Positions 7,850 through 43,198 of a stretch of DNA of 64,000 nucleotides are shown here, one piece after another. How positions within the stretch are numbered: position 1 is the first letter of the stretch; every line of letters starts with the position of its first letter. The notes under the pieces are model-generated. The model made no database searches and was not told the DNA's origin. It worked only from the letters and a program-made list of their open reading frames with translations. The stretch is from NCBI GenBank assembly GCA_964393515.1, contig CAYMTY010000006.1:38334-102333 (forward strand), in the 5' to 3' direction. Both the position numbers and the translations under genes were made by a program. This stretch comes from an uncultured Verrucomicrobiota bacterium. GTDB taxonomy: Bacteria > Verrucomicrobiota > Kiritimatiellia > CAIQIC01 > Lenti-01.

Positions 7850-9996
7850 CCGTCCGCACGGGATTCCGGGCCGGCGGGCGCGGAATGATAGTACCGGTAG
7901 GTGTAGCCGCCATAGCGGCGGTAATAATAATAGTTGGCCATCGACTTGAAATTGACCCCGTTCATGATGCAGCCCAGGCAGGGGGTGCCGCCCTCCTGGA
8001 GCTTGAGGATCGCATGGCGGGCGCCCAGGCTGTGGGTGACGCCGTAGCGAACGACAAACAGCACGCCGTCCACGTTGGGCAGCAGCACGAGGGAATCACT
8101 GACGCCCAGGATCGGCGGGGCATCGACGATGACATGCTGGTACTGTTCGCGCGCCTCCCGGAGGAAATCGACGAACGGCTGGCGGCCGAGCAGTTCGGCG
8201 GGGTGCAGGGGCAGGTGCCCCGAGGAAATCACGCCGAGGTTCGGCACATCCTGCTGAAGCAGGACCTCCCGCCAGCGGGTCTCGCCTTTGAGGACATCGG
8301 CCAGGCCGATCGCGTCCGGTTGCGTGTCGAAAATTCTTGTCAGCACCGGCCGGCGCAGGTCGGCGGCGACCAGCAGGGTGCGGCGGCCGTCCTGGGCCAG
8401 GCTGATGGCCAGGTTGGTCGAAACCAGGGACTTCCCCTCCCCGGGACCGGCACTGGTGATCATCAGGACGGGTGCGTTGCGGATCTCCTCCTTGAGCAGC
8501 AGGCTGGCGCGCAGCGTGCGGAAGGATTCGGCCACCTCGCTGGTCTGCCGCAGATGGGCGACCATGCCGCGCTCCCGCACGGTCTTGTCGCCGATCAAGG
8601 GCACCGTGGCCAGCACGGGCAGGCCCAGCAGGCGCTCGACCTCCTCATTGCGGCGGAACCGGTGGTCGGCATAGTAGAACAGGAAAATCGCGCCGATGCC
8701 GAGGATCAGGCCGAAGGCGGCCCCCCGCACCACGGCCTGGCCCAGCCGCGGCCGGAACGGGGCCTTCGCGGGCCGCGCCTCCTCCACGATGCGGATGATG
8801 TCGGCCGGCAGGGTCTCGGAAATGCTGGCCTCCTTCATGCGGGCGATCACGGCCTGGTGGATCTCGCGGTCGGCCTCGACGTTGAGCTTGAGCTCGTTGT
8901 AGCGCACCAGCTTGCGGTCCAGGTCGAACGCCTCCTTCTCCTGCTTCTTCAGGGCGGCCAGGAGATTCCGCTCCCGCTCGACCAGGACCTCGTAGCGGTT
9001 CTGGAAGGCGTACAGGGCATCGTCGCAGGCCTGTTCAAACTGCTTCTGGAGTTTCTTCTCCTGTTCAAGCGCCTGCTGCAGGTCGGGATACTGTTCGCGG
9101 TAGCGCTGCTGCAGGCGGTCGACCTCGCGCTGCTGCTCCTGGACCCGCTGGTGCGCCGCCTGCACGTTGGCGTCGCTCATCACGGCCGCGATCTTGCTGG
9201 CCGGAACGTTGGTTTCAATCTGCGCCTGGATGGACTTCCAGGCCGTCTCGGCCTGGATGCGCTCCGTCTGGGCTGCAGTCAGCGCCTGGTTCAACGCCTT
9301 GAGCTTGTCGATAACGATGTTCTGGTCCTCCTCCAGCGAAACCGAACCGGTCTCCTCGCGGTAGTGCTGCAGTTCGGCCAGGCCCTTTTCGAGCTTGTCG
9401 CGGTATTCCTCGGAGCGTTCGCGCAGCCACTCGACCGCCTCCAGGGAGGCGTTCATGCGCATGTCGAGGTACTGCTGGATGTAGGACTGGGCGAGGGCGT
9501 TGGCGAAAGCGCTGGCGGCCTGCGGATCGGCATGCTCGACCGTGATGTCGATCATGCGGGTCTTCTCCACCGCCTTGATCGCCACCAGCCTGCGGGCGGC
9601 CTCGGCCTTGTCCTCGGGGGTTTTGCCCCCGGGCAGGAACCCGGGCTGCTGATCCAGCCCGCTCCGTTCCAGGGCCGCCGCCATCATGTTGCGGCTATGG
9701 AGCGCATTCAGGTGCGTGTTGAAGAACTCGAGGCTGCGGGTGTTGTAGGACAGGACATCCTGGAAATTCAGGATCTTGGGGATCTGCGCCTCCACCAGCA
9801 GAGTGGCCGTGCTGCGGTACATCGGCGTCTGGCGGCGGGCGTTGAGGAAAAACAGCAAAAAGACGACGGCGGCCACCGACAGGCCCAGCCAGGCGCGTTC
9901 CATGAGGATGGCCACGGCCTCGCGCCAGTCGGGAAACTTGGAGAGGCTGTTTTCGCCGCTGTCGCCGCCGTTCGCAATGTAGGGGGTCTTGGTCAT
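7846..9996 (-). CDS. wzc: Polysaccharide co-polymerase with a C-terminal BY-kinase domain (Wzc/GumC/EpsG-like, PCP-2a).
   Basis: N-terminal Wzz-like domain with two TM segments, long coiled coils, a Walker A motif (MITSAGPGEGKSLVSTNLA) and a tyrosine-rich tail (YYYRRYGGYTYRYY). Confidence 0.85.
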   Translation of the reverse strand: MTKTPYIANGGDSGENSLSKFPDWREAVAILMERAWLGLSVAAVVFLLFFLNARRQTPMYRSTATLLVEAQIPKILNFQDVLSYNTRSLEFFNTHLNALHSRNMMAAALERSGLDQQPGFLPGGKTPEDKAEAARRLVAIKAVEKTRMIDITVEHADPQAASAFANALAQSYIQQYLDMRMNASLEAVEWLRERSEEYRDKLEKGLAELQHYREETGSVSLEEDQNIVIDKLKALNQALTAAQTERIQAETAWKSIQAQIETNVPASKIAAVMSDANVQAAHQRVQEQQREVDRLQQRYREQYPDLQQALEQEKKLQKQFEQACDDALYAFQNRYEVLVERERNLLAALKKQEKEAFDLDRKLVRYNELKLNVEADREIHQAVIARMKEASISETLPADIIRIVEEARPAKAPFRPRLGQAVVRGAAFGLILGIGAIFLFYYADHRFRRNEEVERLLGLPVLATVPLIGDKTVRERGMVAHLRQTSEVAESFRTLRASLLLKEEIRNAPVLMITSAGPGEGKSLVSTNLAISLAQDGRRTLLVAADLRRPVLTRIFDTQPDAIGLADVLKGETRWREVLLQQDVPNLGVISSGHLPLHPAELLGRQPFVDFLREAREQYQHVIVDAPPILGVSDSLVLLPNVDGVLFVVRYGVTHSLGARHAILKLQEGGTPCLGCIMNGVNFKSMANYYYYRRYGGYTYRYYHSAPAGPESRADG

Positions 9997-10071
9997 AGAC
10001 TATAGGCGGTAGGCGGCGGACTGTAGGGGAAAGAAGTCATAGGGATTAGGCTGCAGGGGGTGGGCTGTAGG
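9997..10071. repeat. Left inverted-repeat region of IVS-like cassette 2 (ATAGGCGGTAGGCGG / GGCTGTAGG motifs).
   Basis: CTATAGGCGGTAGGCGGCGGACTGTAGGGG ... GGGCTGTAGG pairs with the reverse complement of 10452-10489 (GACGATAGGCTGTAGGCTGTAGCCG). Confidence 0.5.
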
Positions 10072-10074
10072 TTT

Positions 10075-10432
10075 TCATTTGTTGCGCATGGAACGAATCA
10101 GCGCTCCAAGTACTTTTTCAGATTCCGGCATTTTCAAGTCGCCCTCACAAGCGATCTTTTCGCCAATATATCCCAACCGCAGGGACAACCCGAACTGGTA
10201 ATGCAGTTCTCGCAAGGAACCAAATGCCACTTTGAGAAAATGCCGGTATTCGGCTTGGCTCTCATATGCATATCCCTCCACAATGTTGGATACAACTGAA
10301 ACCGCCGCCCGCCTCATTTGCGAGGTCAAACCAAACAACTCTTCTTTGGGCAAACTCCCGCGTGATCCGGTAGACCAAAATCGCAATCCCGTCAGCCAGT
10401 TTAAAGGCCCTGAGCTTCGTATGATCCCGCAT
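10075..10432 (-). pseudogene. Four-helix-bundle protein (23S rRNA IVS protein family), second copy. Disrupted by a 1-nt insertion.
   Basis: N-terminus MRDHTKLRAFKLADGIAILVYRITREF in one frame. C-terminus ...PKEELFGLTSQMRRAAVSVVSNIVEGYAYESQAEYRHFLKVAFGSLRELHYQF... in the +1 frame (ORF 10075..10386). The extra base lies in GAGTTTGCCCAAAG. Confidence 0.6.
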
Positions 10433-10451
10433 TGCTTTCCTAACGTCTTCC

Positions 10452-10489
10452 CGGCTACAGCCTACAGCCTATCGTCTACAGCCTTCTTC
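10452..10489. repeat. Right inverted repeat of IVS-like cassette 2.
   Basis: CGGCTACAGCCTACAGCCTATCGTCTACAGCC is the reverse-complement partner of the 10003-10030 region. It ends at the wza stop codon. Confidence 0.5.
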
Positions 10490-11155
10490 CTAGAACAGCA
10501 CCTGATCCACCGTGATGACATCGTTGGGTTCAAGCGGGACATCCTTTTCCCCGTCCCTGCTGCGCAGCAGGTCCGACACCCGGATCCGCAGAGTGTCCTG
10601 GTGCCCGTCGGGCGTGCGCCGCACAATGCGGACGCGGTCCGGGCTGGCCAGTTCGGTGAAGCCACCCGCCCCGGCAATGGCCTGTAGCAAGGTCATGGAA
10701 CTGCCAAACGGTAGGGGGTAGACCCCGGGCTTCTTCACCTCGCCCAGCAGCACGATCTGGGAGCTCTGGGTGGACACCATCTTGAGGATGACTCGCGGGT
10801 TGACCAGATAGTCCTTGGCCAGACGCGCGGTCAGCGCCGCCTCGGCTTCCTTGACCGTCTGGCGGTCCAGCAGCACGGTCCCCAGCAGCGGATGGCGGAT
10901 TTCCCCCTCCGGGCTGATCTGGAACACGCCGGACAGCTCGGGCTCGCGGTAAACCTGGATATCGATCTCGTCGCCCGGCTGCAGGAGGTATTCAGGGGGG
11001 ATTCCGGCCGCGGCGGGCGGCGCCGCCGGCGCGGGTTGCGCCCGCGGCTGCGCGGCCGCCGGCGGGTGGGCGCAGCCGGCGGACATCCCCGCCAGCCCCA
11101 GGCTCAGGACGGCCGCGACTCCGCACCGCCGGATTGTGGTCATACGCGATTCCAT
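10490..11155 (-). CDS. wza: Polysaccharide export outer-membrane lipoprotein (Wza/OPX-like: Poly_export plus SLBB domains).
   Basis: Lipobox-like signal (...LAGMSAGC). Also IQVYREPELSGVFQISPEGEIRHPLLGTV and DVITVDQVLF, typical of the Poly_export/SLBB domain. Confidence 0.8.
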   Translation of the reverse strand: MESRMTTIRRCGVAAVLSLGLAGMSAGCAHPPAAAQPRAQPAPAAPPAAAGIPPEYLLQPGDEIDIQVYREPELSGVFQISPEGEIRHPLLGTVLLDRQTVKEAEAALTARLAKDYLVNPRVILKMVSTQSSQIVLLGEVKKPGVYPLPFGSSMTLLQAIAGAGGFTELASPDRVRIVRRTPDGHQDTLRIRVSDLLRSRDGEKDVPLEPNDVITVDQVLF

Positions 11156-11212
11156 GGGGTGATGGATAGCAAAACCGCGGGGGAAAGGGAATGCCGGAAT
11201 TGCCGCCGGGAG

Positions 11213-12508
11213 CTAGTAGTTCCAACTGGCGCGCAGGGTCCAGCGTCCGTATTCATAGGAAGTGGCCTCCTGCAGCTCGGCATCCGCGTCCTGGCTGCCA
11301 TCGCGCTGCATGTAGGAATAGGCTAGGCCTAGGGAGAAGTGCTGCTTGGTCCACCAGTCCACGCCCAGCGTGAACCCCCAGTAGTTGTCGCTCCGCCCGT
11401 CGAAGGCCAGGGGCGCCGCCCCGGCCGCCGGCTCCGCCTCTCCGCCGTGGTAGTCGATCCGGCCGAGCGTGACGGACGCGTTGCCGCGCAGGCGTTCAGA
11501 GAACAGCCGGCGGGCCGCGGAGACCACCACGCCCTGGTCCACCGTGTCCAGGCCCGCCTCGTCGGCGGCCGGGCGCACATCCGCATAGAGCTCGGCGCTG
11601 AAGGCGGTCAGCCCGAACGGGCTGCTGCGGGCTTCGAGCGCGGCGATCCAATGCTCGAACGAGCCGCGCGCTTGGTCGTCGTAGGTCCGCCACATGTAGC
11701 CCACCCGGCCGGACGAGGAGAACTTGGGCGACTGCTTGCCGCGCACGCCCAGCGCCAGATCATGGTAGTCGGCGCCGCTGGCGGCATCGGTTGCATCCCG
11801 GGGCTCGTCGCGGCCGAGGCCGGCCTGCACGAATCCCTCGCTTTTGGGGGTCAGGCGGTGGTACAGCCGGCCGCCGCCGTAATAGCGGTCGTAATCCACG
11901 TAGTCTTCCGCGTCGAAATCGTGCCGTTCGGCGCGCCCCAGGCCCCCCAGGCTGGACTTGCCTGAGATCCGGTGCTCCGCGCTGAGATCGGCGAAATAAT
12001 CCCGCTTGAGGACGCGCGCGCCGACCACGGCATCCAGTTCCTCCAGGTGGCGGTAGCCGAACTGGCCGTTGATCTGGCTTTTAGGCGTGCGGTAGACGGC
12101 CCCCAGGCGCAGCAGGTGGCTGGGCCGATCGCTGACCTCCTCCTCGCTGTTGTACAGCGGGATGCCCAGGCCGTAGTCGGCGTAGAGGTGGTTGTCCGCC
12201 GGCCGCCCCCAGATGGCCAGCAGGCCGGGGGCCAGGTTGACGGAAGTCGCCGCGGTCCCGTCCTCCGGATCGAGGAACACGTTGTCCTCGTGCGAGACCG
12301 ACAGCGTCACCCGCGGCAGGAGCGCCCCGGTCTTGACCGGCATGTAGAACGGATCGAAGACCGCGCCGCCCTGATCCAGGTAGAAGGCGGTCTCGACGCC
12401 GCGGGTATAGAAGCCCGAAGCATAGCTGTCGAGCGCGGCCCATACGGACAGGGGCGCCGCTCCGGCGGCGCCCGCCAGCAGGAACCAGATGAGGATCCGT
12501 TGCCTCAA
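11213..12508 (-). CDS. Putative outer-membrane beta-barrel protein. Family unassigned.
   Basis: Signal peptide (L)RQRILIWFLLAGAAGAAPLSVWA, alternating beta-strand pattern and a C-terminal aromatic ...RASWNY. The start was set at the TTG at 12508, just after the upstream stop. The track ORF to 13405 overlaps the hydrolase gene. Confidence 0.45.
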   Translation of the reverse strand: MRQRILIWFLLAGAAGAAPLSVWAALDSYASGFYTRGVETAFYLDQGGAVFDPFYMPVKTGALLPRVTLSVSHEDNVFLDPEDGTAATSVNLAPGLLAIWGRPADNHLYADYGLGIPLYNSEEEVSDRPSHLLRLGAVYRTPKSQINGQFGYRHLEELDAVVGARVLKRDYFADLSAEHRISGKSSLGGLGRAERHDFDAEDYVDYDRYYGGGRLYHRLTPKSEGFVQAGLGRDEPRDATDAASGADYHDLALGVRGKQSPKFSSSGRVGYMWRTYDDQARGSFEHWIAALEARSSPFGLTAFSAELYADVRPAADEAGLDTVDQGVVVSAARRLFSERLRGNASVTLGRIDYHGGEAEPAAGAAPLAFDGRSDNYWGFTLGVDWWTKQHFSLGLAYSYMQRDGSQDADAELQEATSYEYGRWTLRASWNY

Positions 12509-14406
12509 CGGTTCGCCTCCAGGTAGCGGAAGCCCTGGATCAGCTCGATTTCCCGCCGATTGTACGGGGTGCCGTCCGGCTCCAGCACGCCCTGCTGCCA
12601 GAGATCCGGATCCTTTTCCGACCGGAAGTGGGGCTGCTGAATTTCCAACTGGGTCTTGCCTTGCACGAGGCCGCGGTTGAACCAGCCCACCCGGTAGGCG
12701 GAGAACAGCGGCAGCACCTTCTCGAAGTCGTTGCCGGTCTGGCGCATCAGCCAGTCGGCGCAGATGATCGGGCGGTTGTAGCGCTGGAGCAGAAGCAAAC
12801 GCGCCTCGATGCTTTCGACATTGTCGAAGCTCTGGAAGGTGATCAGGTCGGAGCGTTCCAGCTTGCGGGTGGCCATCGCGCTGCCGAACTCGCGCCAGGC
12901 GGCGACCGCCAGCGGCTGGGAAGCCTCGACCGAGCGGGCCCAGTTGAAGGTCTGGTCCATCAGCGGCAGGGATTCCTCCCACAGCCCGCTGTTGCCGGCG
13001 GTGTTGTAGAGGTCCCAGTAGAGGATCCGGCCGTCGCGCTTGAACCGGCCCATCACGTCCTTGACGTATTTCTCCAAGGCGGACCATTGCGCGCGGTCGG
13101 TGACGGCGGCATGGGCCGGGCTGGGCACCCAGCGGCTGTTGTACTGGCCCGGCACCGGTTCGGGCTGGGGCCCGGGCTGCGGCGGCTGGCCGGCCAGGTC
13201 CAGGTCGTCGAACAGCACCGGCACGATGCGCAGCCCGTGCTTGCCGGCCAGGTCGAGCAGCTGGTCCACGCGCTTCAGGAAGCCGTCGGGATCGGCCTGC
13301 CACACCACGAACTGCAGCGGGACGCGGATGGCCGTGTAGCCGAGGCTGCGGGCCCAGCTGAGCTCTTCGTCGATCGTGTCGGGATCGAAGGTGTCCGCCA
13401 TCCACATTTCCACGGAGTTGACGGCGGTGCGGGGAATGTAGTTGACACCCTTGATCGTGCCGATGTTTTCAAACCAGTTCCAGATGCGCAGCTCCTCCCA
13501 GCGCCCGCCCGGCGCCCCCGCCCCCGGCCGGGGCAGCCTCGCGGGCACGGCCGAGGCTACGGACGGACGGATCGTCGGGCTGGCGTCGGTGACCAACGCG
13601 CCGGAATCCAGCGTGACGATGTCGGAGGACAGCCCCAGGTACTGCGCCAGCCCGTCCCGGTCGAAACCGCGCTCGCGGTAGATGAAGGGCTCCAGGTCGG
13701 CAAAGAACGTGTTGCACAGTTCGAAGTAATGGAGTTCGGGATCGGTCGCCACGCCCTCCTCTTGCAGGTCGCTGCGCTCGGTCTCCGGATCGAACGTCAT
13801 CCGGGCGGCTTCGCCGGCCTGCAGTTCGGTGCGATTGCCGCCGCGGGGCACGACCGCCAGTTCGTAGGCATCGCTGTAGACGTCCCAGCCCTCCCGGCCC
13901 TTCTGCGCCACGACGAACGAACCGCCCTGCGCCTCGACAGTGCCGGCCGGGGTCTCGATCCGGATGTCGAGCGTCGGAGACGGCGGTCCAGCCTGCACGC
14001 GCATCCGGCCCTTGTGGAGCTGGAGGTGGATGCGCCGGACCAGATCGTCCTCGGTCCGGGGCAGGCCATCGGCGGTATGCCGCAGCTGCATGATCGTAAA
14101 CTCGGTGTTGGGGGCCACGCACAGGATCGCTCCTGGCGAGCAAACCATGCACAGCCGGCCGTCCCTGCCGGTCATTACGCGGGTACTCTCGCCCACCGCC
14201 GCGCCTTCCAACAGCCCCCGCGTCTCCTGGCGCCCTTCGTGCACGGGTGCGGTATAGACCCGGGCGGTGGCCCGGCCAGCCTGGGCCGCCACGACGGCCT
14301 CCCCCGTCGGCGGCAGCGCGCGGGCCGGCAGCGCCAGCAGCCAGCCGAAGGCCAAGCCAGCCATGGCCAACCGGCCGGTCCGGAAAACGATGCTTGTCTT
14401 GTTCAT
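12505..14406 (-). CDS. Secreted protein with an N-terminal FecR-like beta-sandwich and a C-terminal TIM-barrel glycoside-hydrolase-like domain (GH5/cellulase-superfamily-like).
   Basis: Signal peptide MNKTSIVFRTGRLAMAGLAFGWLLALPARA. Glycosidase-like stretches IKGVNYIPRTAVNSVEMW and YTAIRVPLQFVVW. A canonical NEP catalytic motif was not found, so enzymatic activity is uncertain. Confidence 0.4.
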   Translation of the reverse strand: MNKTSIVFRTGRLAMAGLAFGWLLALPARALPPTGEAVVAAQAGRATARVYTAPVHEGRQETRGLLEGAAVGESTRVMTGRDGRLCMVCSPGAILCVAPNTEFTIMQLRHTADGLPRTEDDLVRRIHLQLHKGRMRVQAGPPSPTLDIRIETPAGTVEAQGGSFVVAQKGREGWDVYSDAYELAVVPRGGNRTELQAGEAARMTFDPETERSDLQEEGVATDPELHYFELCNTFFADLEPFIYRERGFDRDGLAQYLGLSSDIVTLDSGALVTDASPTIRPSVASAVPARLPRPGAGAPGGRWEELRIWNWFENIGTIKGVNYIPRTAVNSVEMWMADTFDPDTIDEELSWARSLGYTAIRVPLQFVVWQADPDGFLKRVDQLLDLAGKHGLRIVPVLFDDLDLAGQPPQPGPQPEPVPGQYNSRWVPSPAHAAVTDRAQWSALEKYVKDVMGRFKRDGRILYWDLYNTAGNSGLWEESLPLMDQTFNWARSVEASQPLAVAAWREFGSAMATRKLERSDLITFQSFDNVESIEARLLLLQRYNRPIICADWLMRQTGNDFEKVLPLFSAYRVGWFNRGLVQGKTQLEIQQPHFRSEKDPDLWQQGVLEPDGTPYNRREIELIQGFRYLEANR

Positions 14407-14444: not shown

Positions 14445-14882
14445 ATGTCCGATTCCCGGGAAATCGTCGAAAGCCTGCTCCAGCAGCACACGACCGTTAC
14501 CTTCCAGGCCCAGGGCCTTAGCATGACACCCGCCATCCGCGCCGGCGACCTGGTCCATGTCCGGCCGGCCGCAGGCCCGGATCTGCGCCGGGGCAGCGTC
14601 GTTCTGTACCGGAACCATGGCCGCCTGATCCTGCACCGGCTGGTGGCCTGCGACCGCCAGGCCGCCCGCGTGCGAACGGCCGCGGATGCCGCGCTGGCCG
14701 GCGGCGACTGGATCCCCGTCGCGGACATTCTGGGCGTGGCCGAATCGGTCCGCCATGGCGACCGGCTCCAGCGCCTGGACACGGCGCCGGCCCGACTGGC
14801 CGGCCTGCTGCGCTATGCCCTGCGGCCGCTGCGCCGCTTGGCAATCGCCCTGAATCGCCGTTTGAAACCACTGGTCCTGTAG
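14445..14882 (+). CDS. Small soluble S24/S26-family serine peptidase-like protein (signal-peptidase/LexA-like fold). It appears to be of the Ser/His type.
   Basis: GLSMTPAIRAGDLVHV carries the nucleophile motif. The position normally occupied by the KR(V/L) general base reads RLILHRLVA, as in S26B/SEC11-type enzymes. No N-terminal TM helix. Confidence 0.55.
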   Translation: MSDSREIVESLLQQHTTVTFQAQGLSMTPAIRAGDLVHVRPAAGPDLRRGSVVLYRNHGRLILHRLVACDRQAARVRTAADAALAGGDWIPVADILGVAESVRHGDRLQRLDTAPARLAGLLRYALRPLRRLAIALNRRLKPLVL

Positions 14883-14936
14883 GGGCTCAGCTTGCTGAGC
14901 CCGGGATCTAGGCTGAGCAAGCTCAGCCCCTACAAG
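14883..14936. terminator. Twin GC-rich hairpins between convergent genes. Candidate bidirectional terminator.
   Basis: GGGGCTCAGCttGCTGAGCCC and GGCTGAGCaaGCTCAGCCC lie immediately after the TAG of the S24-like gene, 50 bp before the HprK-like gene stop. There is no U-tract. Confidence 0.35.
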
Positions 14937-14986: not shown

Positions 14987-15886
14987 TCACGCCAAAGCCC
15001 CTTCCCCGGCCAAGGCCTCCACCGCTGCCGCTGTCTTCGTGAAATGAAACTGCGCGGGTTTGATCTCGCGCACCAGCCGGTTCAAGCCGTCCAGGGTTCC
15101 CTGCGCCCAGGAGTCCTCGAACCAAGGCACCGCGGCCACGTCCAGCATGGCCAGCCGGGCCTGCACCGCCGGCAGCAGCTGCACGCGTTCCGTGGCCGCC
15201 TGCCGCAGCAGAAAGAGGCCGCCCAGCGGCGCCTCCTCCGCCTCGGCGAAGCAGCCGGAGCCGTGCCACGGCGTGCCGGCCACCCGCCATTCCCCGCCGC
15301 GGCGAAAGACCATGGCGCGGTCGTCGTTCAGGATCCGCCAGCCCTGCGCATGGCAAAGGCCGGCCAAGGTGGACTTGCCCGCGCCGCTGCGGCCGGCAAA
15401 TACCCAGCCTGTACCTTCGTGAACCGCGGCGGCTCCGTGCACCAGCGCGCCGCCCAGGCGCGACAGCATTCCCCAGGCGAGAAACTGGTCCAGCGGATAA
15501 TGCAGCGGCGCCTCCAAGCCATCGGAATGCCGGGACAGCCAGGCCGGATCCAGCGCCAGTTCCGCGCGGGAGAGATCGCGCGCCACCCGACAGCCGTAGC
15601 GGGCCCGGCCCGGCTCCTGGAATCCCGCGCAGCACAGCAGGTCCGCGCCCTGGTCCCAGACCGCCCAGCATTGGCCGCGCCGCCACAGGGGGGCGGCGGC
15701 GGGCAGCGGCGTCGCCCGCGGCACCAGATCCACATCCAGAATGGCTAGCGGCTCCGGAGCGCGGCGGGCGCCGCCCCGGGAAAAGAAGTTCCGATAGCCC
15801 GGTTCAGAATACCGGACCGGGCGCAGGCCTTCGCCCTGCAGTTTCAACCGCAGGGGGCCAATGTTGATTTGACCCAGATGGCTCAT
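14987..15886 (-). CDS. HPr kinase-related P-loop protein (HprK-related kinase A-like).
   Basis: Walker A FAGRSGAGKSTLAGL, embedded in an HprK C-terminal-domain-like context. The start was set at MSHLGQINIGP, where the ATGA overlaps the stop of the small upstream ORF. Confidence 0.65.
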   Translation of the reverse strand: MSHLGQINIGPLRLKLQGEGLRPVRYSEPGYRNFFSRGGARRAPEPLAILDVDLVPRATPLPAAAPLWRRGQCWAVWDQGADLLCCAGFQEPGRARYGCRVARDLSRAELALDPAWLSRHSDGLEAPLHYPLDQFLAWGMLSRLGGALVHGAAAVHEGTGWVFAGRSGAGKSTLAGLCHAQGWRILNDDRAMVFRRGGEWRVAGTPWHGSGCFAEAEEAPLGGLFLLRQAATERVQLLPAVQARLAMLDVAAVPWFEDSWAQGTLDGLNRLVREIKPAQFHFTKTAAAVEALAGEGALA

Positions 15887-16059
15887 GAACCCGGCTCGAA
15901 AAAACCCGGTTCCTCGATCGGGCACGGCTCGGTCATTTTGCAACCTTCGCCCAGCGTTTCGGCCAGCGCCAGATCCACGCGCTTGATCTCCGGCTTGGCA
16001 TAGGGCCGCCGCACCGTCAGTTCGTCGGGCGTCTGGATATTGTCAGGCTCGGGTTTCAT
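15883..16059 (-). CDS. 58-aa small ORF. Candidate RiPP precursor peptide or accessory peptide.
   Basis: MKPEPDNIQTPDELTVRRPYAKPEIKRVDLALAETLGEGCKMTEPCPIEEPGFFEPGS. Both ends are ATGA-coupled, to the radical SAM stop and to the kinase start. It has an amphipathic leader-like helix and a Cys-x4-Cys acidic core. Confidence 0.4.
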   Translation of the reverse strand: MKPEPDNIQTPDELTVRRPYAKPEIKRVDLALAETLGEGCKMTEPCPIEEPGFFEPGS

Positions 16060-17114
16060 CGGACATCTCCGGCTTCGGGGGTCAGGGCCATCTTGTAGCG
16101 CAATTTGGCGGTGGTTTGCATGTACTGGGAATCCCGCTCTTCGTCGCCGGTTTCCAGGGCGTTGAAGGCGGGGCAATGGGTGCAGGCTCCGCGCAGGGGG
16201 CCGCGGGCCGGCACCACGCGGCGGCGGCGGCGGATTTCGGCGAGTTCGCCGTTCCATAGTTCGCGGAACGGGCGGCCGGCGGATTCGCAGCGGTAGCGCG
16301 TGGCCAGCAGGCACGGGGAATAGCCGCCGAAGGGGTCGGCATGGAAGAAGGTCTGGCCGGCGGCGCAGGCATACAGGCGTTCGTCTGCCGGGAAGGCCGC
16401 GACGCGTGCGATCGTCTCGCGCCATTTCTGCTTCCGCCCGGGCCGGGCCAGGTCGCGCCGCACGGCTTCTGCCGGCGGCACCCGGAGCGCCAAGGGCGCC
16501 GGCGAACCGTCCGTGAGGCACGGAAAGACCGCCGCATCGTGGCGAAAATCCACGCCCAGTTCCCGCGCCTGCCGTTCCATGGCCTCCAGCTCGTGCCGGT
16601 TGACCGTCAGCAGCATGGTCTTGAGGACCACGCGGATGCCGGCCGCCTGCAGTCGGCGGATGCCCTCCCAGGCGCGCGCGTGCGAGCCCGGGACGCCGGT
16701 AACGGCTTCATGGACTGCCGCCGTGGCTCCGTACAGGCTGATCTCAACCTTGCGCGGCGGCAGTTCGCGGAACAAAGCCACGATTTCTTCCGTCACGAGC
16801 GTGCCATTGCAATAGACCGTCACGACCATCCCCAATTCCCGGGCGTGGCGGTAGATTTCCGGAAAATCGGGCCGCAGCATCGGTTCACCGCCGGAAATCA
16901 GCAGATAGAGGCAGCCGGCTTCAGCCCACTCGGCGAGCCGCGCCTGCACGGTGGCGGGGCCGAGTTCCCGGTCGCGCAGGCGGTGCTGGGCGGCCTGGTC
17001 GCCGAGGTAGCAGTGGGCGCAACGCAGATTGCAGCGGCGCGTCAGCTCCAGCATGGCGGAGACCGGCCGGCGCGCCCGGGAATTTCGCCCGCGAAACGCT
17101 TCCAGCCAATCCAT
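16056..17114 (-). CDS. Radical SAM protein with a C-terminal SPASM domain.
   Basis: CNLRCAHCY (CxxxCxxC) near the N-terminus. SPASM cysteines are in ...YACAAGQTFFHADPFGGYSPC... and ...GACTHCPAFNALETG. The start could be 17114 (MDWLEAF) or 17054. Confidence 0.8.
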   Translation of the reverse strand: MDWLEAFRGRNSRARRPVSAMLELTRRCNLRCAHCYLGDQAAQHRLRDRELGPATVQARLAEWAEAGCLYLLISGGEPMLRPDFPEIYRHARELGMVVTVYCNGTLVTEEIVALFRELPPRKVEISLYGATAAVHEAVTGVPGSHARAWEGIRRLQAAGIRVVLKTMLLTVNRHELEAMERQARELGVDFRHDAAVFPCLTDGSPAPLALRVPPAEAVRRDLARPGRKQKWRETIARVAAFPADERLYACAAGQTFFHADPFGGYSPCLLATRYRCESAGRPFRELWNGELAEIRRRRRVVPARGPLRGACTHCPAFNALETGDEERDSQYMQTTAKLRYKMALTPEAGDVR

Positions 17115-17137
17115 GGCGACGGCCTGGACGACGCCGT

Positions 17138-17458
17138 TCAACCAGACACCTCTTCGAGCAGCTGTTGGGCCACCAGCCGGCCCGCGTATTCTCGGCAATC
17201 GGCCAGGGCCTGGTCCGCTGAAACCGCAAACGCTTCGGCCACGGCCTGCGCCGTATCGGCCAGGGAAATCCCTGCGGACAGCCGTTCCCAGATGAATGCC
17301 CCGGTTTCGTTGAGCGGGAACACGCAGTTCTCGTGGGCAATGCCGCCCGATACCGGCACCAGCAGGCGGTCCTCCCCGATCCGGCGCAGAACAATCCGAC
17401 CCTTCATTGTGAAGGTTGGACTATGGTTCATCTCCATGGGGGCACTGGGTAACGCCAT
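17138..17458 (-). CDS. PqqD-family peptide-binding chaperone (RRE-like).
   Basis: RIVLRRIGEDRLLVPVSGGIAHENCVFPLNETGAFIWERLSAGISLADTAQAVAEAF matches the PqqD fold pattern. Confidence 0.7.
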   Translation of the reverse strand: MALPSAPMEMNHSPTFTMKGRIVLRRIGEDRLLVPVSGGIAHENCVFPLNETGAFIWERLSAGISLADTAQAVAEAFAVSADQALADCREYAGRLVAQQLLEEVSG

Positions 17459-17474
17459 GACTTCTAATTATCCC

Positions 17475-20400
17475 TTATAAAAGCCGTAGACAATACAAAA
17501 TCTGGGCCTGCGGAAGCGTGGGCGTGCCGATTCCCCCGTTCCGCTGGATGATGGCGCCGTTCGTGGACTTCAGGACCAGCCACTTGCCGGAGCCGGGGAA
17601 GAAAACCGCCAAATCGGCCTTGCCATCCCCGTCATAGTCCGCCGGCACTGGTACGGGATTCTTCTCCTGCGTGCCGAATCTCGCCGTGCGATTGCCGCCG
17701 GTGCTGTTTGCGATGGTCCACGTGGCGGTCTTGCGGGCGAATACGGCAAGATCCGCCTGGCCGTCGCCGTCGTAATCCGCCGGCACCGGCAGCGCGGCGC
17801 CGCCGCCCAGCGTTTTTTGCACCGGCTGGCCGTCGGACGAGCGCAGAATGTGCCATCGGCCGCCGGCGGTTGCATGCATCGCCAGGTCGGTCCGGCCGTC
17901 GCCGTCGTAATCCGCCGGCACCGGCACCATGCCCGGCAGGCCGAAGGCCACGTGCCATTCGGCCCCGCCGCCGCTGGGCCGAACCTGCCACCGGGAGTTC
18001 GCGCGGTGGTACACGGCGGGATCCCCGATGCCATCGCCGTCGTAATCGCCCGGAACCGGGCACGCCGCGGCCGCTGGCCCCAGCTTCACCACGCGGTCCT
18101 TGCCGCCCGCGGACGGCCGGATATGCCAGTTGCCCGACGACGGCTGGAAGACGGCCAGATCTGTCATCCCATCGCCATCGTAATCCGCGACCGCCGGCAG
18201 CGTCAGGGACGTGCCAAACCGGAGTGCCCGCAGGCCCAGCGAACTGCGCGACTGGAACCAGAACCGGAACTTGAGGCCGTAGCGGGAGAAGTCTGCCAAT
18301 CCGTCGCCGTCGAAATCGTGCAGCTGGCCGAACGGCCCCCGGGGCCACCAGAGCACCTGGTCCAACCAGCCCGCATCAGCGCCCTTGGCGCCACGGCGGT
18401 CCTTGGCGTACTCCCAGCGCAACGTCGCCGCCCCTGGAATCCTCCAGGATTTCCACTGCCAACCGCTTTCGCCGGAAATGGCCGCCTTGGGTGCGCCGTT
18501 GATCCACAGCCGCAGGACATCCTGGTTCGGCTGCGAAGAGGCCTTCCACCAGAAGCTGATCCAGCCCGGACCGGTCATCGTTGTCTCCAGCCAGCTCCGC
18601 TGGCCATGGCCGATGGCCCCGCTCTGCAGCGCTTCCACCCCGTCGTAGGTTGTGTGGGACTGGCTGAACCACGGCGCGCTGCCGCCCGTGGTCCACGTCA
18701 ATCCCGGCGCGTTCAAGGCCGCGTCCCGGTCCGCGCTGTAGGAATGGAACCGGGCCGAGTAGGCCGCACCATCGGCCGGCACCCTGATCGTGCGCGGATT
18801 CTCGAGGCTGCCGTCGCTCCAGCCGGTGAAGGCCCAGCCCGGGTTCGGGGCGGCGGAAATCCGCACCTGCGTTCCCTGATCATAGGTGCCGCCGCCCGCC
18901 ACAGTCCCGCCCGCGGCCGGATCGGCCGTCACTTCCACCACCGCGGTCAACCGCCGGAAGGTTGCCGTGTAGGTCCGGCCGCCGGCCGGCACCATGATCA
19001 TGCGCGGATTGGCCAGTTCGCCGTCGGTCCAGCCGGTGAATTCCCAGTTGGAGGCAGCCTCCGCGGTAAGTTTCACGAGCTCACCCACGCCGCAGGTGCC
19101 CCCGCCAGCGACGGTGCCGCCTTCAGGCGGGTCGGCCGCCACGGAAACCTGCGCCAGCTGCCGCTGGAACAGGGCGGTGTAGGCCATGCCGCCATGGGTG
19201 ACCGTGACCGTCCGCGGATTGCGTGTAACTCCATCGCTCCAGCCTGCGAAATCCCAATGGTTGCTCGTCGTGGCCGTCAAGGTGGCCCGCGCGCCGGAAG
19301 GATAGACGCCGCCGCCGCCGGCCGTGCCGCCTTCCGGCGGCTGGCTGTTCACCGTGAGCACCAGGGCCTGCCGGTCCGTGTTGCCCGCGATCTTCAGGGC
19401 CGGATCGCCGAGCAGGTTGTAGACCGCCAGCGTGTCCCGCGAGATGAATTCGGTTTGCACGGCGCGGCGCGCCTGCAGGATGGCCAGGCCCAGCCGGCCG
19501 CAGCCCTCCTGGAGCACGGCCCGGTAGAACGCCACGCCCAGGTCGCCGGCCGGCGCGTTGCGCGACAGGCCCGACGGACTCCATGCCGCCACCGCCCCGC
19601 CCGTCGCCCGCTGCAGCAGCACCTCGCCGAGGTTGTCCACGCCTGGCATCTCGAACCGCCCCGCCAGGCAGGTCAGGGCCACCGCCACCGGCTTGCGGGC
19701 GTTGGCCATGACATGGACATCCGTGTCCTTCAGCAGGTTCTTGGCGCTCCAGTTCTTGGCGCCGCCATGGCCCGTGAAGTGAACGAAGCCCACGCCGGCC
19801 TTGAACCAGTTGGACAACGACATGCGCGCCGCGGCGATCGCCGTGGTGTCCAGATTGATCCGCGCCGCCAGCGGATGCGCCGTGTCCTTCAGGGCCGCAA
19901 TGCGGTCATTGACCTTCATGAAACTGCCGGCGGCATCGTCCGCGGTGTCGGTGGCCAGCACCAGTTGGTTCTGCCAGTCCGCACCGAACTCGGTCTCGAA
20001 GGCTTTGATTTTCGCGATCATTGCCGCCAGGTCCGCGGCGTTCCGCGCCGGCAGACGCCCAAGGGCCACATCCGGCAGTGCGTCGCCGTCCGCGTCCGCG
20101 AACAGGCCGTCGGCGGCGAAGAGCCCCTCCATCGTCGCCAGCAGCAGCGGCGGCAGATGGTTCACTTCGTTGCTCTTCACCCCGAGGTAGTCGTAGTGGC
20201 CGTTGCCGGCCAGCACCACCATCCACGGAGCCTCGGTCCAGGTTGTTTGGGCATAGGCCAGCAGTTCGGGAATCGCTTCGGGTGTCCGCAGTCCACCCGT
20301 CAGCAGGTCGCAGACATCTTCGAACACCGCCACGCCCGAGCGCAGCCCCTGCCCGGCCCGGTAGTCCGAAAGTTCCTGCGCCGTCTCCGCCAGCGCCCGC

Positions 20401-23400
20401 GAGGCCACGACGAGATAATCAATCCGGTTGTCCGCCGCGAGGAACCACGCGTCCGCCGCCGCCGCCTCGGGCGCTAGCAACGGCAGTTCCGCGGTCTCCA
20501 CCAGCGCGAACCGCTCGCCGTTGGCCGCGGCCCACGTCTTGTCGGACAGCGCGCCGCTTTCGTCCGCAATCCACGCCGGCACGCCGTCATCATCCAAAGC
20601 CACCGCCAGCGGCGCGGCAAATGCCGCCGCCGAAACACCCGCGCCGTCCGTGCGGAAGTGGACCGTCCCCGCCCCGGGATCCAGCCGCCGGTTGTACGCC
20701 GCCGTGAACCCGTCCACCACGAAGTAGCTGTACAGGCCGGCCGCCGGCAGCGCGCCGCGCACCGTCAGCGTGTTGGCGCCGGCCATCGCCACGCCCTCTG
20801 GAATCGTCAGGGTCGCCGTTGCGGCTTTCTGATCGTCGAATTCGAGCGCGCCGAGGGCCACGCCATTCACGAAGAACTCCGCCCGGTGGTCCGGAGTCCG
20901 GTCCGTCCGCGTCCAGCCCAGCAGGTCCGCCGTGAGCGTCACCGGCCCGCCGGCATAACCGTTCAGGACGAACGGGAAATCCACCCGGTTCAAAGCCGGG
21001 TTCACCGAGGCGGTCACCATCTTCCAGTAGTACCAGTCCTCCGGCAGTTCGGTCATCGTCGCGTTGCCGATGCCCTGGTCCTCCTCGAACCGCACCTGCA
21101 CCGGGAACACCGTGCCGCCGGCCGCGGCCCCCGGTTCGCGCCGGGCCATCGGCAGGCCTTCGCCCGCTTCGATTAGAACCGCGTTGTCGCGCGCATACCA
21201 GTTGTCGGTCGGCTTCCCATGGAACACCATCCGGCCGTTCGCCGTGTCATAAATCACCGGCACGGGCGCGCCCTGTTCGGTGAAGGCCAGGCCGTTCTCT
21301 TCCGCCAGCGCCTGCACGTCTTCCCGCGCCAGCCCCATGCCGTCGGCGATGGCCTGCAGCGAAACGCCGTAGAGCCCTTCCTGCTTGAACAGTACTTTCA
21401 GCACCGGCGATGGTCCCGCGAGTTTCTTGGGCGCGACGTCCCGCGGCGCGGCCTTGGCCGCCCGCGCGGTCCGCGGGGCGGGCGGCGGAGGGACAAACTG
21501 GATTTCGTGCGTGCCGTGGTCCACCGTGCCGCCCGTCAGCTCCGCCTCTTCCAGCCGGTACAGGCCGCGCCCGCCTGCGACCGCGGCCGGATCCGCCAGC
21601 GTGTACTCCGCCCCGTCCTCCTGCAGCGCCGACGGCACCAGTTCCGCGTTCAGCCGGGTTTCCTCGCCCGTGTCGGGATCCACCCGGTACACGCAGAAGC
21701 CCGCCGTGTCGAACTCAGACGACGTCCGCCAGGCGACCTGGCCGGCCTCCCCGCGCCATTCGCCCCACACTTCCGCCAATTCCGCCCGGGTGGAACCCAG
21801 CGGCCCCAGTCCCAGGTCCAGCGTCAGATTCGTCTGCGCGCCGGCCAGGACGAAGTTCGTGGTCCAGGCATAGCCTCCGACTCCGCCGTTCACCGCATCG
21901 CTGTCCAGCGCGGTGTCGCCGCCCTGCAGGGCGGGCGACAGGGCCGTATAATTGGTGTCGAGGCCGCTCAGGTCGAACCGGATGTAGTACGTCCCCGGCA
22001 CGATGTTGGCGAACAGGTAGGCCCCCTCCGCGGTGGTCACCATCGAGGTCACCACCATCCCGTTTGTGTTCATCAGCGCCACCGGCACGTCCGGGATGCC
22101 GTTGGTCTCCCCCGAATCCTGGATGCCGTCGCCATTGACATCGAACCAGACCCGGTCGCCGACCGTGGCCCCGCCCTTGGGCACGATCACCACCGCGCTG
22201 ACGTCGTTCGACGGCACCGGATCGTAGAGGTCGCGCGCCGTGACGGCCGCCGAATTCGTGATGCGCTTCCCGCCCGTGCCTTCGTAGACCGTCACGTTGA
22301 AATACAGCGTCGTGGAAGCGCCCACCGCCAGCGAGCCGACGCTCCAGATGCCCGAAACCGGGTTGTAGGTTCCGTTCGAATGGCTGTTGTACTGCACATC
22401 GGCAGGCAGCACGTCCGTAAGTTCCAGGCCTGTTGCCGTGTCCGGACCGTTGTTCGTCGCCACCACCCAGTAGTCGATGATCGCGGTCTGGTCCGGTTCG
22501 GTCTCCGTCACGAACTTCGTCACGCCCACGTCGGCGTACTGCACGCAGTTGGTGACCGACGACTGAGTCGCCGGCTGCACGGAGCTGTAGGCGCTGGCGG
22601 TGTTCAGAATCTGGGTTACCGCAGAAGGCGAATCGACGGTGGCCTGGAAGGTGATGGTGACGGTCGCCCCGGTGTCCAGAACGCCGCCGGTCCAAAGGTT
22701 CGGCGGCGCGCCGAGCGCGCCCGAGGTGGCCTGGGAGGTGTCGTAGGACAGAACGATGCGCCCGGCCGCGCCCGCCCCGCCGGTGCGGGTGCCCGAGCCG
22801 GTACGGAGACCGCCGCCACCGCCGCCGCCCGGCGCGTTGCCGGCGGTGCCGTTGCCTTGGGTGCCGCTGCGGCCATTGCCGCCGGCGCCGCCGCCGGCGG
22901 GCGCCGCCGCGCCCGTCTGGTTGGCCGCGTTGTTGCCGGCCGCACCGGTGCCGGCGGAAGAGCCGCCGCCGCCGCCGTAGGAGGTGCCTGACCCGTTCGC
23001 GCCGTTGCCGCCGGCGTAAAGCGTATCGCCGATGCCCGTGGCCGCCGAACCGCCCGCCGCTCCCGTCGCGCTGTTGTTGACGCCGCCGCTGCCGCCGCGC
23101 GCCAGCACGCCCGTCGTCGAACCCAGGCTGAACCACGAATCGCCGCCGGCCGTGTTCGCCGCGCCGCTTGCGCCGACGTTCACGACGTAGTTGCTGCCGG
23201 GCAACACGGCCACGGCCGCGCGGCTGTAGGCGCCGCCGCCCCCGCCGCCGCCGCCGCCGTTGGAGGTGCGCGTCGCGCCGCCGCCGCCCCCGCCCCACGC
23301 CTGGACCGTGGCCGACGTGATGCCCGCGGGCACCGTGAACGTGGTCGAGGCGTTGTTGGTCAGCGTCACCACGCCGCCCGTCGGGTTGTAGAACGTGGCG

Positions 23401-29015: not shown

Positions 29016-29034
29016 GGTCGTGGACTCTCTCAAT

Positions 29035-29231: not shown

Positions 29232-29954
29232 TTATTTCGGCATCGCGTCGCGCAAGGTTTTCATCGCGACTTCGCCCAGGCAGACTTTGTGCGAACTGCC
29301 CCGGAACACGATTTGCTGTCCGGAACAATCGCCCCCGTCGCGCAAGGTCTGGATTTCCGCCAGATTCACGATGGTCGAGCGGTCCAGCGCTTTGAAGGTT
29401 TTTTCCGGCAGGATTTCGCGCCACTCGCGCAGGGGGCGGCTGTGCAGGAATTCCCGGCCGTCGCGGACCAGCACCCGCGTGTAGATGCGCTCGCCCACGA
29501 TCGCCTGGATCTGGCCGACGGGCACCAGATGCCGTTCGTCGCCCAGCTTGAACGACTGCATGTCGTCCGGAGAGAGCCGGCCAGCCTCGGATTTCGCCGC
29601 CGTCGCCAGCCGCGCCCGCAGCCGCGCCACGGCGCGCGCCAGCGTGTCTTGCATCACCGGCTTGAGCAGGTAGTCCGCCGCGTCGATCTCGAACCCTTTG
29701 ACCGCGTAGTGCGGATGGGACGTCGTGATGACCACCTGCGGCCGCCATTTCGCCGCCTCGAGCGCCTTGAAACCCTTCTGGCGGCCCAAATGGATGTCCA
29801 GAAACACCGCGTCCGGCCGTTCCCGGTCGATCAGCGCCGTCGCGGACTCCAGCGAGTCCGCCTCGCCCGCGATTTCCACGTCCGGATGGTCTTCCAGCAG
29901 CGTCTTCAGGTTCAGCCGGTCGATTTCCTCGTCGTCAACGATGATCGCTCTCAT
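29232..29954 (-). CDS. LytTR-family response regulator.
   Basis: Receiver domain MRAIIVDDEEIDRLNLKTLLED...VFLDIHL plus a C-terminal LytTR DNA-binding domain. Confidence 0.85.
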   Translation of the reverse strand: MRAIIVDDEEIDRLNLKTLLEDHPDVEIAGEADSLESATALIDRERPDAVFLDIHLGRQKGFKALEAAKWRPQVVITTSHPHYAVKGFEIDAADYLLKPVMQDTLARAVARLRARLATAAKSEAGRLSPDDMQSFKLGDERHLVPVGQIQAIVGERIYTRVLVRDGREFLHSRPLREWREILPEKTFKALDRSTIVNLAEIQTLRDGGDCSGQQIVFRGSSHKVCLGEVAMKTLRDAMPK

Positions 29955-40305: not shown

Positions 40306-40339
40306 GACTTCATCTCTCACGCCCCGCCGGCGCAAGCCT

Positions 40340-40984: not shown

Positions 40985-43194
<2,210 letters not shown>

Positions 43195-43198
<4 letters not shown>

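Follow-up and report, generated by a model that had tools for sequence, protein, structure and literature searches.

Here we describe a set of clustered genes whose product is most likely a small peptide with chemical modifications, found in a stretch of DNA from an uncultured Verrucomicrobiota bacterium of the class Kiritimatiellia (GenBank assembly GCA_964393515.1, contig CAYMTY010000006.1, positions 38,334 to 102,333 of the forward strand), which is 64,000 nucleotides (nt) long and is referred to below as the window. On the minus strand, genes for a PqqD-family recognition protein, a radical S-adenosylmethionine (SAM) enzyme, a 58-amino-acid (58-aa) open reading frame (ORF) and an HprK-like P-loop kinase succeed one another, each joined to the next by a 4-nt overlap, and a fifth gene, for a peptidase of S24/S26-like type, converges on the kinase gene from the opposite strand. 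We think it rather probable that the whole is a biosynthetic cassette for a ribosomally synthesised and post-translationally modified peptide (RiPP) of an apparently uncharacterised class, with the 58-aa ORF as the precursor and a maturation pathway of four steps. The ORF itself most likely encodes a conserved precursor, not catalogued before, whose peptide family is present in several bacterial phyla, and the five components occur together across phyla.

The cassette is a real and tightly coupled gene set. An earlier note on this DNA had given the order and coordinates of the four minus-strand genes correctly, and had read them as a single expression unit with ATGA overlaps, a view that the 4-nt overlaps throughout support. 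The start codon of the 58-aa ORF overlaps the TGA of the radical SAM gene (ATGA), the ATG of the kinase gene overlaps the TGA of the 58-aa ORF in the same manner, and a Shine-Dalgarno-like GGAG lies 7 nt 5′ of the ATG of the ORF. The radical SAM gene begins with a TTG, and this codon and the stop of the PqqD gene overlap as TTGA; public assemblies use the same 361-aa call, and an alternative ATG start is found at 17114, 27 nt downstream of the TTG. As to the extent of the module, the earlier note was right about its four genes but missed both the S24/S26-like peptidase gene (14445-14882) and the link to Peptidase_C25 that is provided by the adjacent giant gene (17475-29033).

The precursor family and its leader

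A word-indexed search returned 40 homologues of the 58-aa ORF, 58-63 aa long, which have in common the invariant pattern RRPY.KP..KRVDLALAETL..GCK...C...GS, including a second Cys and a C-terminal Gly-Ser. Homologues carry annotations as Kiritimatiellia or Lentisphaerae metagenome-assembled genomes. A profile made from these sequences gave 94 matches at E <= 0.001 among 1.84 billion cluster representatives, the matches being representatives at 50% identity or less. The last residue is Ser in 91 of the 94, Thr in two and Arg in one; the core holds two Cys in 55 and three in 37, and many cores are without any other conserved Ser or Thr. Between the invariant Cys-Lys and Gly-Ser sites the spacer is variable (about 15-28 residues) and the number of Cys differs. 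No Pfam or NCBIfam model matches any precursor of the window or of the distant loci.

The precursor gene lies between the radical SAM and kinase genes, mostly with 4-nt overlaps, in loci L001-L004 and L020-L024 (related loci are referred to by such labels, L001 being a public contig identical to the window). In L025 it has been relocated to a position 5′ of the PqqD gene with its sequence kept, the radical SAM and kinase genes being direct neighbours there; in L008 it has likewise moved within the cassette. Precursors of the same design adjoin the enzymes in L004, L006, L008, L011, L014 and L026. Their C-terminal parts read ...LPYAKPRLRIISLVAEEVLAITCKQVKGSPGMLTRGCGHGTCRSTGGS in L006 (Nitrospira), ...KPYNKPSILSVEPLEAMAVVCSGQTAKTNPGTCNLGPISS in L011 (Thiolapillus) and ...KKPYEPPQIVSREPLEAVAAVCSPPGKANPGACPTGPLNS in L008 (Vicinamibacteria, Acidobacteriota); the precursor of L014 (Thermoanaerobaculia) is of the same subfamily as that of L011, and the short contig L026 has a three-Cys precursor type, followed by the kinase gene and then the S24-like gene. 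The L008 and L011 precursors constitute a second subfamily (...EPLEA[MV]A..CS...K..NPG.C..GP[IL].S). The small Cys-containing ORF had been proposed in the earlier note as the missing substrate of the enzymes, and its conservation in syntenic loci of several phyla, all the related loci examined having it within the cassette, supports this proposal and answers the objection that such an ORF might not be conserved. One further sequence, P0294 (257 aa), has the end of the radical SAM enzyme, the peptide leader and the N-terminus of the kinase in one frame, and most likely represents such a cassette with an assembly frameshift.

The register of the leader could be anchored on a Tyr-x-x-Pro motif in 89 of the 94 precursors. 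Numbered from the predicted cleavage site, these 89 have Tyr(-17) and Pro(-14) in 100% of cases, Leu, Ile or Val(-12) in 97%, Leu(-7) in 100%, Glu(-3) in 98%, Thr or Val(-2) in 96% and Leu(-1) in 91%, followed by Ser, Ala or Gly at +1 (91%), Gly(+3) (87%), Cys(+4) (100%) and Lys(+5) (99%). Lasso peptide leaders are recognised through Tyr(-17), Pro(-14), Leu(-12) and Thr/Ile/Val(-2), which are bound by the B1 PqqD protein, and Thr(-2), with its Ile and Val variants, is a determinant of their processing (PMC10368454); the 89 anchored family members match this register exactly. By the lasso register the leader in the window comprises residues 1-36, and cleavage would fall between L36 and G37. The top NCBIfam matches of the PqqD protein in the window are lasso-peptide PqqD chaperones, at a score below cutoff (29 bits against 70), and the lasso-like leader is in keeping with this closest curated family. 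As the first step of the pathway we propose that PqqD binds the leader through Tyr(-17)/Pro(-14)/Ile(-12)/Thr(-2), as the exact match to the lasso leader positions suggests.

The features expected of a RiPP that depends on a RiPP recognition element (RRE) are present, namely a PqqD-like RRE encoded together with a modifying enzyme, whose gene overlaps its own, and a small precursor with a near-invariant leader and a core that is variable apart from Cys(+4)Lys(+5), a further Cys and the terminal Ser. The RRE that the earlier note had recognised is upheld by Pfam (Table 1), and its reading of the locus as RiPP-type peptide-maturation chemistry gains support from the RRE and the conserved precursor leader together. 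The PqqD gene lies 5′ of the radical SAM gene in Kiritimatiellia-type loci and follows the kinase gene in L007, L008, L011 and L014, and in the Nitrospira locus L006 (6003-7444) a 388-aa ORF has PqqD as an N-terminal fusion to the radical SAM enzyme. In the same locus the C-terminal auxiliary-cluster part of the enzyme reads as a separate 92-aa ORF, which is either a real split or an assembly frameshift.

Table 1. Positions of the cassette genes and of adjoining features in the window
Feature	Position	Strand	Basis or remark
PqqD-family RRE, 106 aa	17138-17458	minus	Pfam PqqD, E 2.7e-12
Radical SAM enzyme with Twitch-like (abridged SPASM) C-terminal domain, 361 aa	16056-17141	minus	Pfam Radical_SAM, E 2.9e-26
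Precursor peptide gene, 58 aa: MKPEPDNIQTPDELTVRRPYAKPEIKRVDLALAETL (predicted leader) and GEGCKMTEPCPIEEPGFFEPGS (predicted core)	15883-16059	minus	joined to both neighbours by ATGA overlaps
Predicted leader, residues 1-36, with Y20(-17), P23(-14), I25(-12), T35(-2) and L36(-1)	15952-16059	minus	family register
Predicted core GEGCKMTEPCPIEEPGFFEPGS, residues 37-58, with C40 and C47, invariant C40-K41 and terminal Ser58	15886-15951	minus	
ScmC-type (Pfam PF27840) P-loop kinase, HprK/PEPCK fold, 299 aa	14987-15886	minus	precomputed Pfam
Inverted repeat, 24-nt arms, between the convergent kinase and peptidase genes	14878-14934	not assigned	
Soluble S24/S26-like Ser/His peptidase, 145 aa	14445-14882	plus	Pfam Peptidase_S24, E 1.6e-6
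Surface-type protein, 3852 aa, Peptidase_C25 domain at aa 2873-3214	17475-29033	minus	Pfam, E 7.8e-60
FecR-like 633-aa protein, EpsL/BBP2_2-like outer-membrane barrel, Wza-type exporter and Wzc-type protein	7846-14406	minus	

Enzymes of the cassette

In 35 homologues of the radical SAM enzyme (54-88% identity) the residues C37/C41/C44 (CX3CX2C), C259/C277 (C-x12-G-x4-C; C-x17-C) and C320/C323 (C-x2-C) are invariant, and C208 is conserved in at least 90%. The seven-Cys motif of SPASM domains, CX9-15GX4C ... CX2CX5CX3C ... C, is incomplete in the window protein, which has no Pfam SPASM match, and a precomputed match to PF13186 (SPASM) is found on one listed homologue only, where it is faint (P0269, on the L025 contig). 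A SPASM domain binds two auxiliary clusters and a Twitch domain is its shortened version, with one auxiliary iron-sulphur cluster (PMC9012708). The four invariant C-terminal Cys form a pattern that fits one auxiliary cluster, and a Twitch-like domain, not a full SPASM, fits the sequence of the C-terminal part; the description of the protein in the earlier note as a SPASM enzyme should be amended to this extent.

The AlphaFold model of the enzyme, with a predicted local distance difference test (pLDDT) score of 91.5, has SkfB as its first Foldseek neighbour (E 1.5e-13), then PqqE, BlsE and SuiB, with anSME, ChlB, CteB and MoaA as further neighbours. The Twitch enzymes SkfB, BlsE and MoaA are among the top fold matches, and the predicted fold groups the enzyme with the peptide maturases SuiB, SkfB, ChlB, CteB and PqqE as well as with the non-peptide enzymes anSME and BlsE; PqqE is the closest solved sequence. 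Searches with curated models confirmed the PqqD and Radical_SAM families in Pfam and gave NCBIfam scores below the cutoffs: the top matches, AhbD and NirJ of the heme pathway, concern the N-terminal radical SAM core only and lie far below cutoff, as does the mycofactocin maturase among the broader matches. The earlier note had held that clustering with cofactor-type enzymes and a lack of auxiliary cysteines would speak against a peptide substrate; the auxiliary Cys proved invariant and the fold lies near those of peptide maturases. In the second step of the proposed pathway this Twitch-like enzyme would introduce one or two oxidative cross-links into the core, most likely on the invariant Cys (for example as a thioether), which we suggest because of the conserved Cys and the structural likeness to SkfB, CteB and SuiB.

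Thirty homologues of the kinase have in common the invariant residues H151, G159, R167-S-G169, G171-K-S-T174, L187-N-D-D-R191 and G205-T-P-W-H-G210. A profile of these homologues matched HprK/P of Lactobacillus casei among PDB sequences (E 3.2e-6), with residue-for-residue correspondence of the catalytic His, the P-loop (GxSGxGKS) and the DD(R) motif, and Foldseek of the AlphaFold (AF2) model (pLDDT 92.3) returned ATP-dependent phosphoenolpyruvate carboxykinase (ATP-PEPCK) and HprK/P. Profile and fold thus agree on the HprK-like P-loop kinase of the earlier note. Public precomputed annotation places the protein in Pfam ScmC (PF27840), and its matches to NCBIfam HprK_rel_A, ScmC and HprK_rel_B reach about 31 bits (~1e-7) against cutoffs of 125-200; on its sequence, we assign it to the ScmC branch of HprK/PEPCK-fold kinases, outside every curated equivalog. 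The earlier note had mentioned protein families defined by neighbourhoods of HprK-related kinase, PqqD and radical SAM genes, and the ScmC assignment points to an uncharacterised cassette of that kind. A scan of a genome collection with the kinase alignment retrieved at least 17 loci, which are distant.

The earlier note had not counted an HprK-family kinase among the standard RiPP tailoring enzymes. The kinase is not unprecedented, because HPr-kinase homologues are established tailoring enzymes of lasso peptides (PMC8498205, PMC10368454): before the precursor folds, its C-terminal Ser receives a phosphate on the side-chain hydroxyl from these kinases, which depend little on the remaining sequence (PMC8498205), and one of them, BsfK, targets Ser3 with the assistance of the B1 protein (PMC10368454). 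The near-invariant C-terminal Ser of the present family fits the precedent of C-terminal Ser phosphorylation, and that 93 of the 94 precursors end in Ser or Thr appears to us the strongest pointer to the kinase target. By analogy with the lasso homologues, the ScmC-type kinase would in the third step phosphorylate the side chain of this residue. In L007 (6253-7437) a gene for an NTP_transf_5 nucleotidyltransferase lies directly 5′ of the kinase gene. In pseudomycoidin a nucleotidyltransferase adds hexoses to phospho-Ser (PMC8498205), and since the L007 arrangement resembles it, some members of the family may be phosphoglycosylated.

The fifth component recurs beside the kinase. According to hidden Markov models (HMMs) built here, an S24-like homologue adjoins the ScmC-type kinase gene in Kiritimatiellia-type loci, Thermodesulfovibrionales, Nitrospira, Vicinamibacteria, Thiolapillus, Bacillus, Paenibacillus and L026, and in L007 it lies 4 kb from the kinase gene. 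Across phyla the peptidase alignment keeps G-x-Ser-Met-x-Pro (GLSMTP in the window protein, with Ser27), an invariant His-Arg and Gly/Ala-Asp; in L008 (6532-7563) and L011 (7187-7585) Cys replaces Ser to give G-x-C-M-x-P, an exchange that is expected at the position of the catalytic nucleophile. The window protein matches archaeal-type signal peptidase I (TIGR02228; E 3.9e-8, score 33.3 against a cutoff of 51.85). No hydrophobic membrane anchor is seen in it by eye, so that it is not a classical signal peptidase, and we consider it a candidate leader peptidase, which in the fourth step would cut off the leader after Leu(-1). In L022 (10882-11355) and L025 (10894-11337) the public gene calls are plus-strand ORFs of 157 and 147 aa with no Pfam match, and an S24/S26-like peptidase is encoded opposite them on the minus strand, where our HMM matches at E 2e-36 and 5.5e-40; the plus-strand ORFs are probably calls on the wrong strand in the source annotation.

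Giant C25 proteins and the polysaccharide-export locus

The gene upstream of the cassette, described in the earlier note as a giant adhesin gene, does encode a giant multidomain protein of surface type, but one that is not only an adhesin, given that it carries a Peptidase_C25 domain. Its other Pfam domains are SdrD_B, DUF11, Gly_rich_2, Flg_new_2 (InlB-like) and FG-GAP, and it has GHG and TC motifs that may correspond to the catalytic His/Cys pair of the gingipain family. C25 genes adjoin the cassette as giants in L020-L023 and L025, as two proteins of ~984 aa in L024, and also in L004, L006 (Nitrospira) and L008 (Vicinamibacteria), and such adjacency is seen in 10 loci spanning at least three phyla; in L008 the precursor gene lies directly 3′ of the C25 gene on the same strand. 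The neighbour in L011 is an S8 protease, with no C25 gene in the fetched sequence, and the fetched sequence of L007 has no such neighbour. That C25 genes are found beside the cassette in one phylum after another suggests a functional link. The idea that the invariant Cys-Lys goes with a C25 neighbour, as a gingipain-type cleavage or inhibitor P1 site, was rejected on account of L008, where a Cys-Ser precursor directly follows the C25 gene.

The window holds three such giants, all on the minus strand (17475-29033, 32842-40335 and 50714-60742; 3852, 2497 and 3342 aa), each with Peptidase_C25; they differ in their repeat sets (SdrD_B/DUF11; MBG_3/F5_F8_type_C), and only one peptide cassette is found. 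Four sensor histidine kinase genes lie between the giants (29935-32778, minus; 40796-43198, 44723-47278 and 47712-50513, plus), one product having 7TMR-DISM domains and two a periplasmic SBP_bac_3, and in L020 an SBP_bac_3/PAS kinase gene lies between the C25 genes and the cassette. Such SBP_bac_3 and other sensor kinases may regulate the locus. In L006 the upstream SdrD_B and Peptidase_C25 ORFs look like one gene in pieces.

The ATG of the PqqD gene follows the TAA (17475-17477) of the 3852-aa gene after 16 nt (17459-17474), where the earlier note had counted 17. A scan of the window for terminator-like sites found none in this gap, as the earlier note had stated, and co-transcription of the cassette with the giant gene, which it had proposed, is plausible here. 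This does not hold for all loci: in L020 the cassette and the giant C25 gene have a sensor kinase gene of opposite orientation between them. At the other border, the arms of the inverted repeat (14878-14901 and 14911-14934) are 92% complementary and are separated by a 9-nt loop. The repeat, which contains nested palindromes, occurs once in the window; it runs into the end of the S24-like gene, including its stop, and is 52 nt away from the kinase stop codon, on its far side. It has no T-run and was not scored as an intrinsic terminator, and it is a candidate bidirectional transcription stop.

Beyond the peptidase gene the cassette borders on genes for polysaccharide export (Table 1). The FecR and BBP2_2 assignments come from Pfam and the weak EpsL assignment from NCBIfam, and the Poly_export and AAA_31 domains are annotated on the identical public contig L001 (Wza-type exporter and Wzc-type chain-length protein/tyrosine kinase). 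The order FecR-like, EpsL/BBP2_2, Wza, Wzc recurs in L004, L020-L023 and L025, and Wzy and Wzm/Wzt genes are likewise found downstream of the cassette. Since the cassette is tied to C25 giants and to a polysaccharide-export locus, its product probably acts at the cell envelope or matrix.

Rival readings, known systems and significance

Several points weigh against the four-step pathway. The cassette has no dedicated exporter; the conservation of the C-terminal Gly-Ser could have a different cause, for instance that the radical SAM enzyme or the peptidase recognises it, and the two core Cys could simply form a disulfide. The Ser3 target of BsfK is not a C-terminal Ser. With PadeK-type lasso kinases the kinase aligns over 41 residues, confined to the surroundings of the P-loop, so that the transfer of substrate specificity from the lasso kinases carries little weight; with the uncharacterised ScmC-like proteins of Bacillus and Paenibacillus it aligns over ~150 residues. 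The S24/S26-like protein scores below the signal peptidase cutoff, no S24-like gene lies within the sequence available for L024, and we know of no RiPP leader peptidase of S24/S26-like type.

The first alternative, which we judge unlikely, concerns the third step: the kinase might act on an acceptor other than the C-terminal Ser, such as an internal Ser or Thr, the C-terminal carboxylate (which would be activated for ligation), the giant C25 protein or a sugar from the neighbouring polysaccharide pathway, with the Gly-Ser serving for recognition only. The position that BsfK modifies would be one precedent, the fold is common with PEPCK, which uses a carboxylic acid substrate, the likeness to the characterised type of C-terminal-Ser kinase is limited as described above, and the cassette lies within a polysaccharide locus. 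Yet a terminal hydroxyl residue is kept by all but one of the 94 members despite very different cores, many of which offer no other conserved Ser or Thr, and the kinase gene travels with the precursor gene in L006, L011 and L026, where polysaccharide genes were not seen.

It seems to us decidedly improbable that the peptide is the source of a small cofactor in the manner of pyrroloquinoline quinone (PQQ) or mycofactocin, a few invariant residues being excised and used inside the cell. The pairing of PqqD with a PqqE-like radical SAM enzyme, the rank of PqqE and the mycofactocin maturase among the matches, the missing exporter and the invariant Cys-Lys and Gly-Ser residues are all compatible with such a product, but the invariant sites lie ~15-28 variable residues apart with differing numbers of Cys, no PQQ or mycofactocin accessory enzymes are found in the cassette, all cofactor-family scores fall far below cutoff, and the linkage is to secreted giants and polysaccharide export, not to dehydrogenases.

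We give still less credence to the view that the enzymes mature the adjacent C25 giant (for example by an anSME-like modification of Cys or Ser) and that the small ORF is an accessory or regulatory peptide. The C25 adjacency in 10 loci and the position of the small gene after the C25 gene in L008 would agree with it; the small peptide, however, bears the leader motif that PqqD-type recognition elements bind, L011 and L007 have the cassette with its precursor and no C25 gene in the fetched sequence, and the window has three C25 giants to one cassette. Finally, the window is rich in G+C (67.6%) and in spurious long ORFs on both strands, but the idea that the 58-aa ORF is a chance frame between two real genes is effectively refuted by the retention of length, frame, motifs and terminal Ser in the 94 representatives, by the GGAG and the overlaps with both neighbours, and because the gene moves within the cassette (L025, L008) yet keeps its sequence.

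Phosphorylated lasso peptides (paeninodin with PadeK, those of the Sphingobium kinases, pseudomycoidin with PsmK, and the Bradymonas peptide with BsfK) have the same leader register as the precursor described here and, like the cassette, a separate PqqD-type protein, a kinase of HPr-kinase fold and a precursor ending in Ser, and phosphoglycosylated lasso clusters have NTP_transf_5 beside the kinase, as does the distant member L007. Lasso clusters, however, encode a cyclase and a B2 protease where the cassette has a radical SAM enzyme and an S24/S26-like peptidase, and their kinases are of the PadeK branch and not of the ScmC branch. A lasso peptide is ruled out as the product, because neither the lasso cyclase (an asparagine-synthetase homologue) nor the B2 transglutaminase-type protease occurs among the gene calls of L001 and L020-L025 or the large ORFs of the window; a lasso-type leader and recognition pair is here joined to a different chemistry.

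True lasso clusters were found with the same kinase profile in L016 and L017, in which a 645-648-aa ORF reads by eye as an asparagine-synthetase-type cyclase. Adjoining them is a variant without a radical SAM gene (L016 4032-6365, Bacillus rhizoplanae; L017 1861-3632, Paenibacillus violae), which comprises genes for PqqD, an S26-like peptidase and an ScmC-like protein; an ATP-binding cassette (ABC) transporter and an ORF of 378-395 aa lie close by. The leader of its precursor reads Y-x-R-P-M-V-L, and the core, rich in Gly, His, Asn and Pro (...SWNKGHGN...), has no terminal Ser. The variant may be a separate uncharacterised RiPP type, and it possibly corresponds to the gene that has been described as a "putative sulfotransferase" in lasso clusters of Firmicutes.

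A PqqD homologue, an HprK-related P-loop protein and a radical SAM enzyme of PqqE-like type also make up SynChlorMet (Scm) and the families HprK_rel_A (TIGR04352), HprK_rel_B (TIGR04355), GeoRSP (TIGR04303) and ScmC (TIGR04249). Scores of the window proteins against these models are 30.9 for ScmC (cutoff 125), 31.8 for HprK_rel_A (cutoff 200), 87.2 for GeoRSP (cutoff 400) and ~75 for ScmE and ScmF (cutoff 400), and the PqqD of the window has no ScmD match in NCBIfam. The SynChlorMet cassette has two radical SAM enzymes, ScmE and ScmF, whereas there is a single radical SAM gene here, and the defined precursor family and the S24/S26-like peptidase set the present cassette further apart from the Scm families. 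To our knowledge, no product or precursor has been assigned to the HprK-related/PqqD/radical SAM families.

SkfB, CteB, SuiB and PqqE, the closest predicted folds to the radical SAM enzyme, likewise work with a partner or fused PqqD-type element, and the thioether systems of SkfB and CteB act on a Cys-containing core, as would be the case here. Their identity to the enzyme is 15-24%, the enzyme has four invariant auxiliary Cys and not seven, and the combination of a kinase with an S26-like peptidase is not part of these systems. The kinase corresponds to HprK/P in fold and aligns with it at the P-loop (GxSGxGKS), at the His before it and at the DD(R) after it, but does not match the HprK/P equivalog TIGR00679, has a different, beta-rich N-terminal domain and stands in the context of a peptide cassette instead of the phosphotransferase system.

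The literature searched holds no paper that describes the precursor, the cassette, SynChlorMet or the combination of HprK with PqqD, and nothing relevant that links Peptidase_C25 or Kiritimatiellia to radical SAM/PqqD RiPP cassettes; kinases and signal peptidases are not mentioned in the RRE-mining papers examined. The enzyme families are curated but uncharacterised, there is no curated model for the precursor, and the overall logic is that of known RiPPs. To this the window adds a concrete precursor family with testable features, namely the leader register, the invariant Cys-Lys and the terminal Ser, together with a fifth conserved gene that may encode a new type of RiPP leader peptidase and a lasso-type leader and recognition system paired with radical SAM chemistry where lasso clusters have their cyclase. 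As a tentative extension, it is possible that a lasso-type leader, a Twitch cross-linker, an ScmC-type kinase and an S26-like leader peptidase define a new RiPP class whose cross-linked, C-terminally phosphorylated product is a dedicated partner of the C25 giants, as a substrate, an inhibitor or regulator, or an anchor in the assembly of surface or matrix, from Kiritimatiellia-type bacteria to Nitrospira and Acidobacteriota. The repeated adjacency to C25 and polysaccharide-export genes points to a role at the cell surface and not to that of a classical antibiotic.

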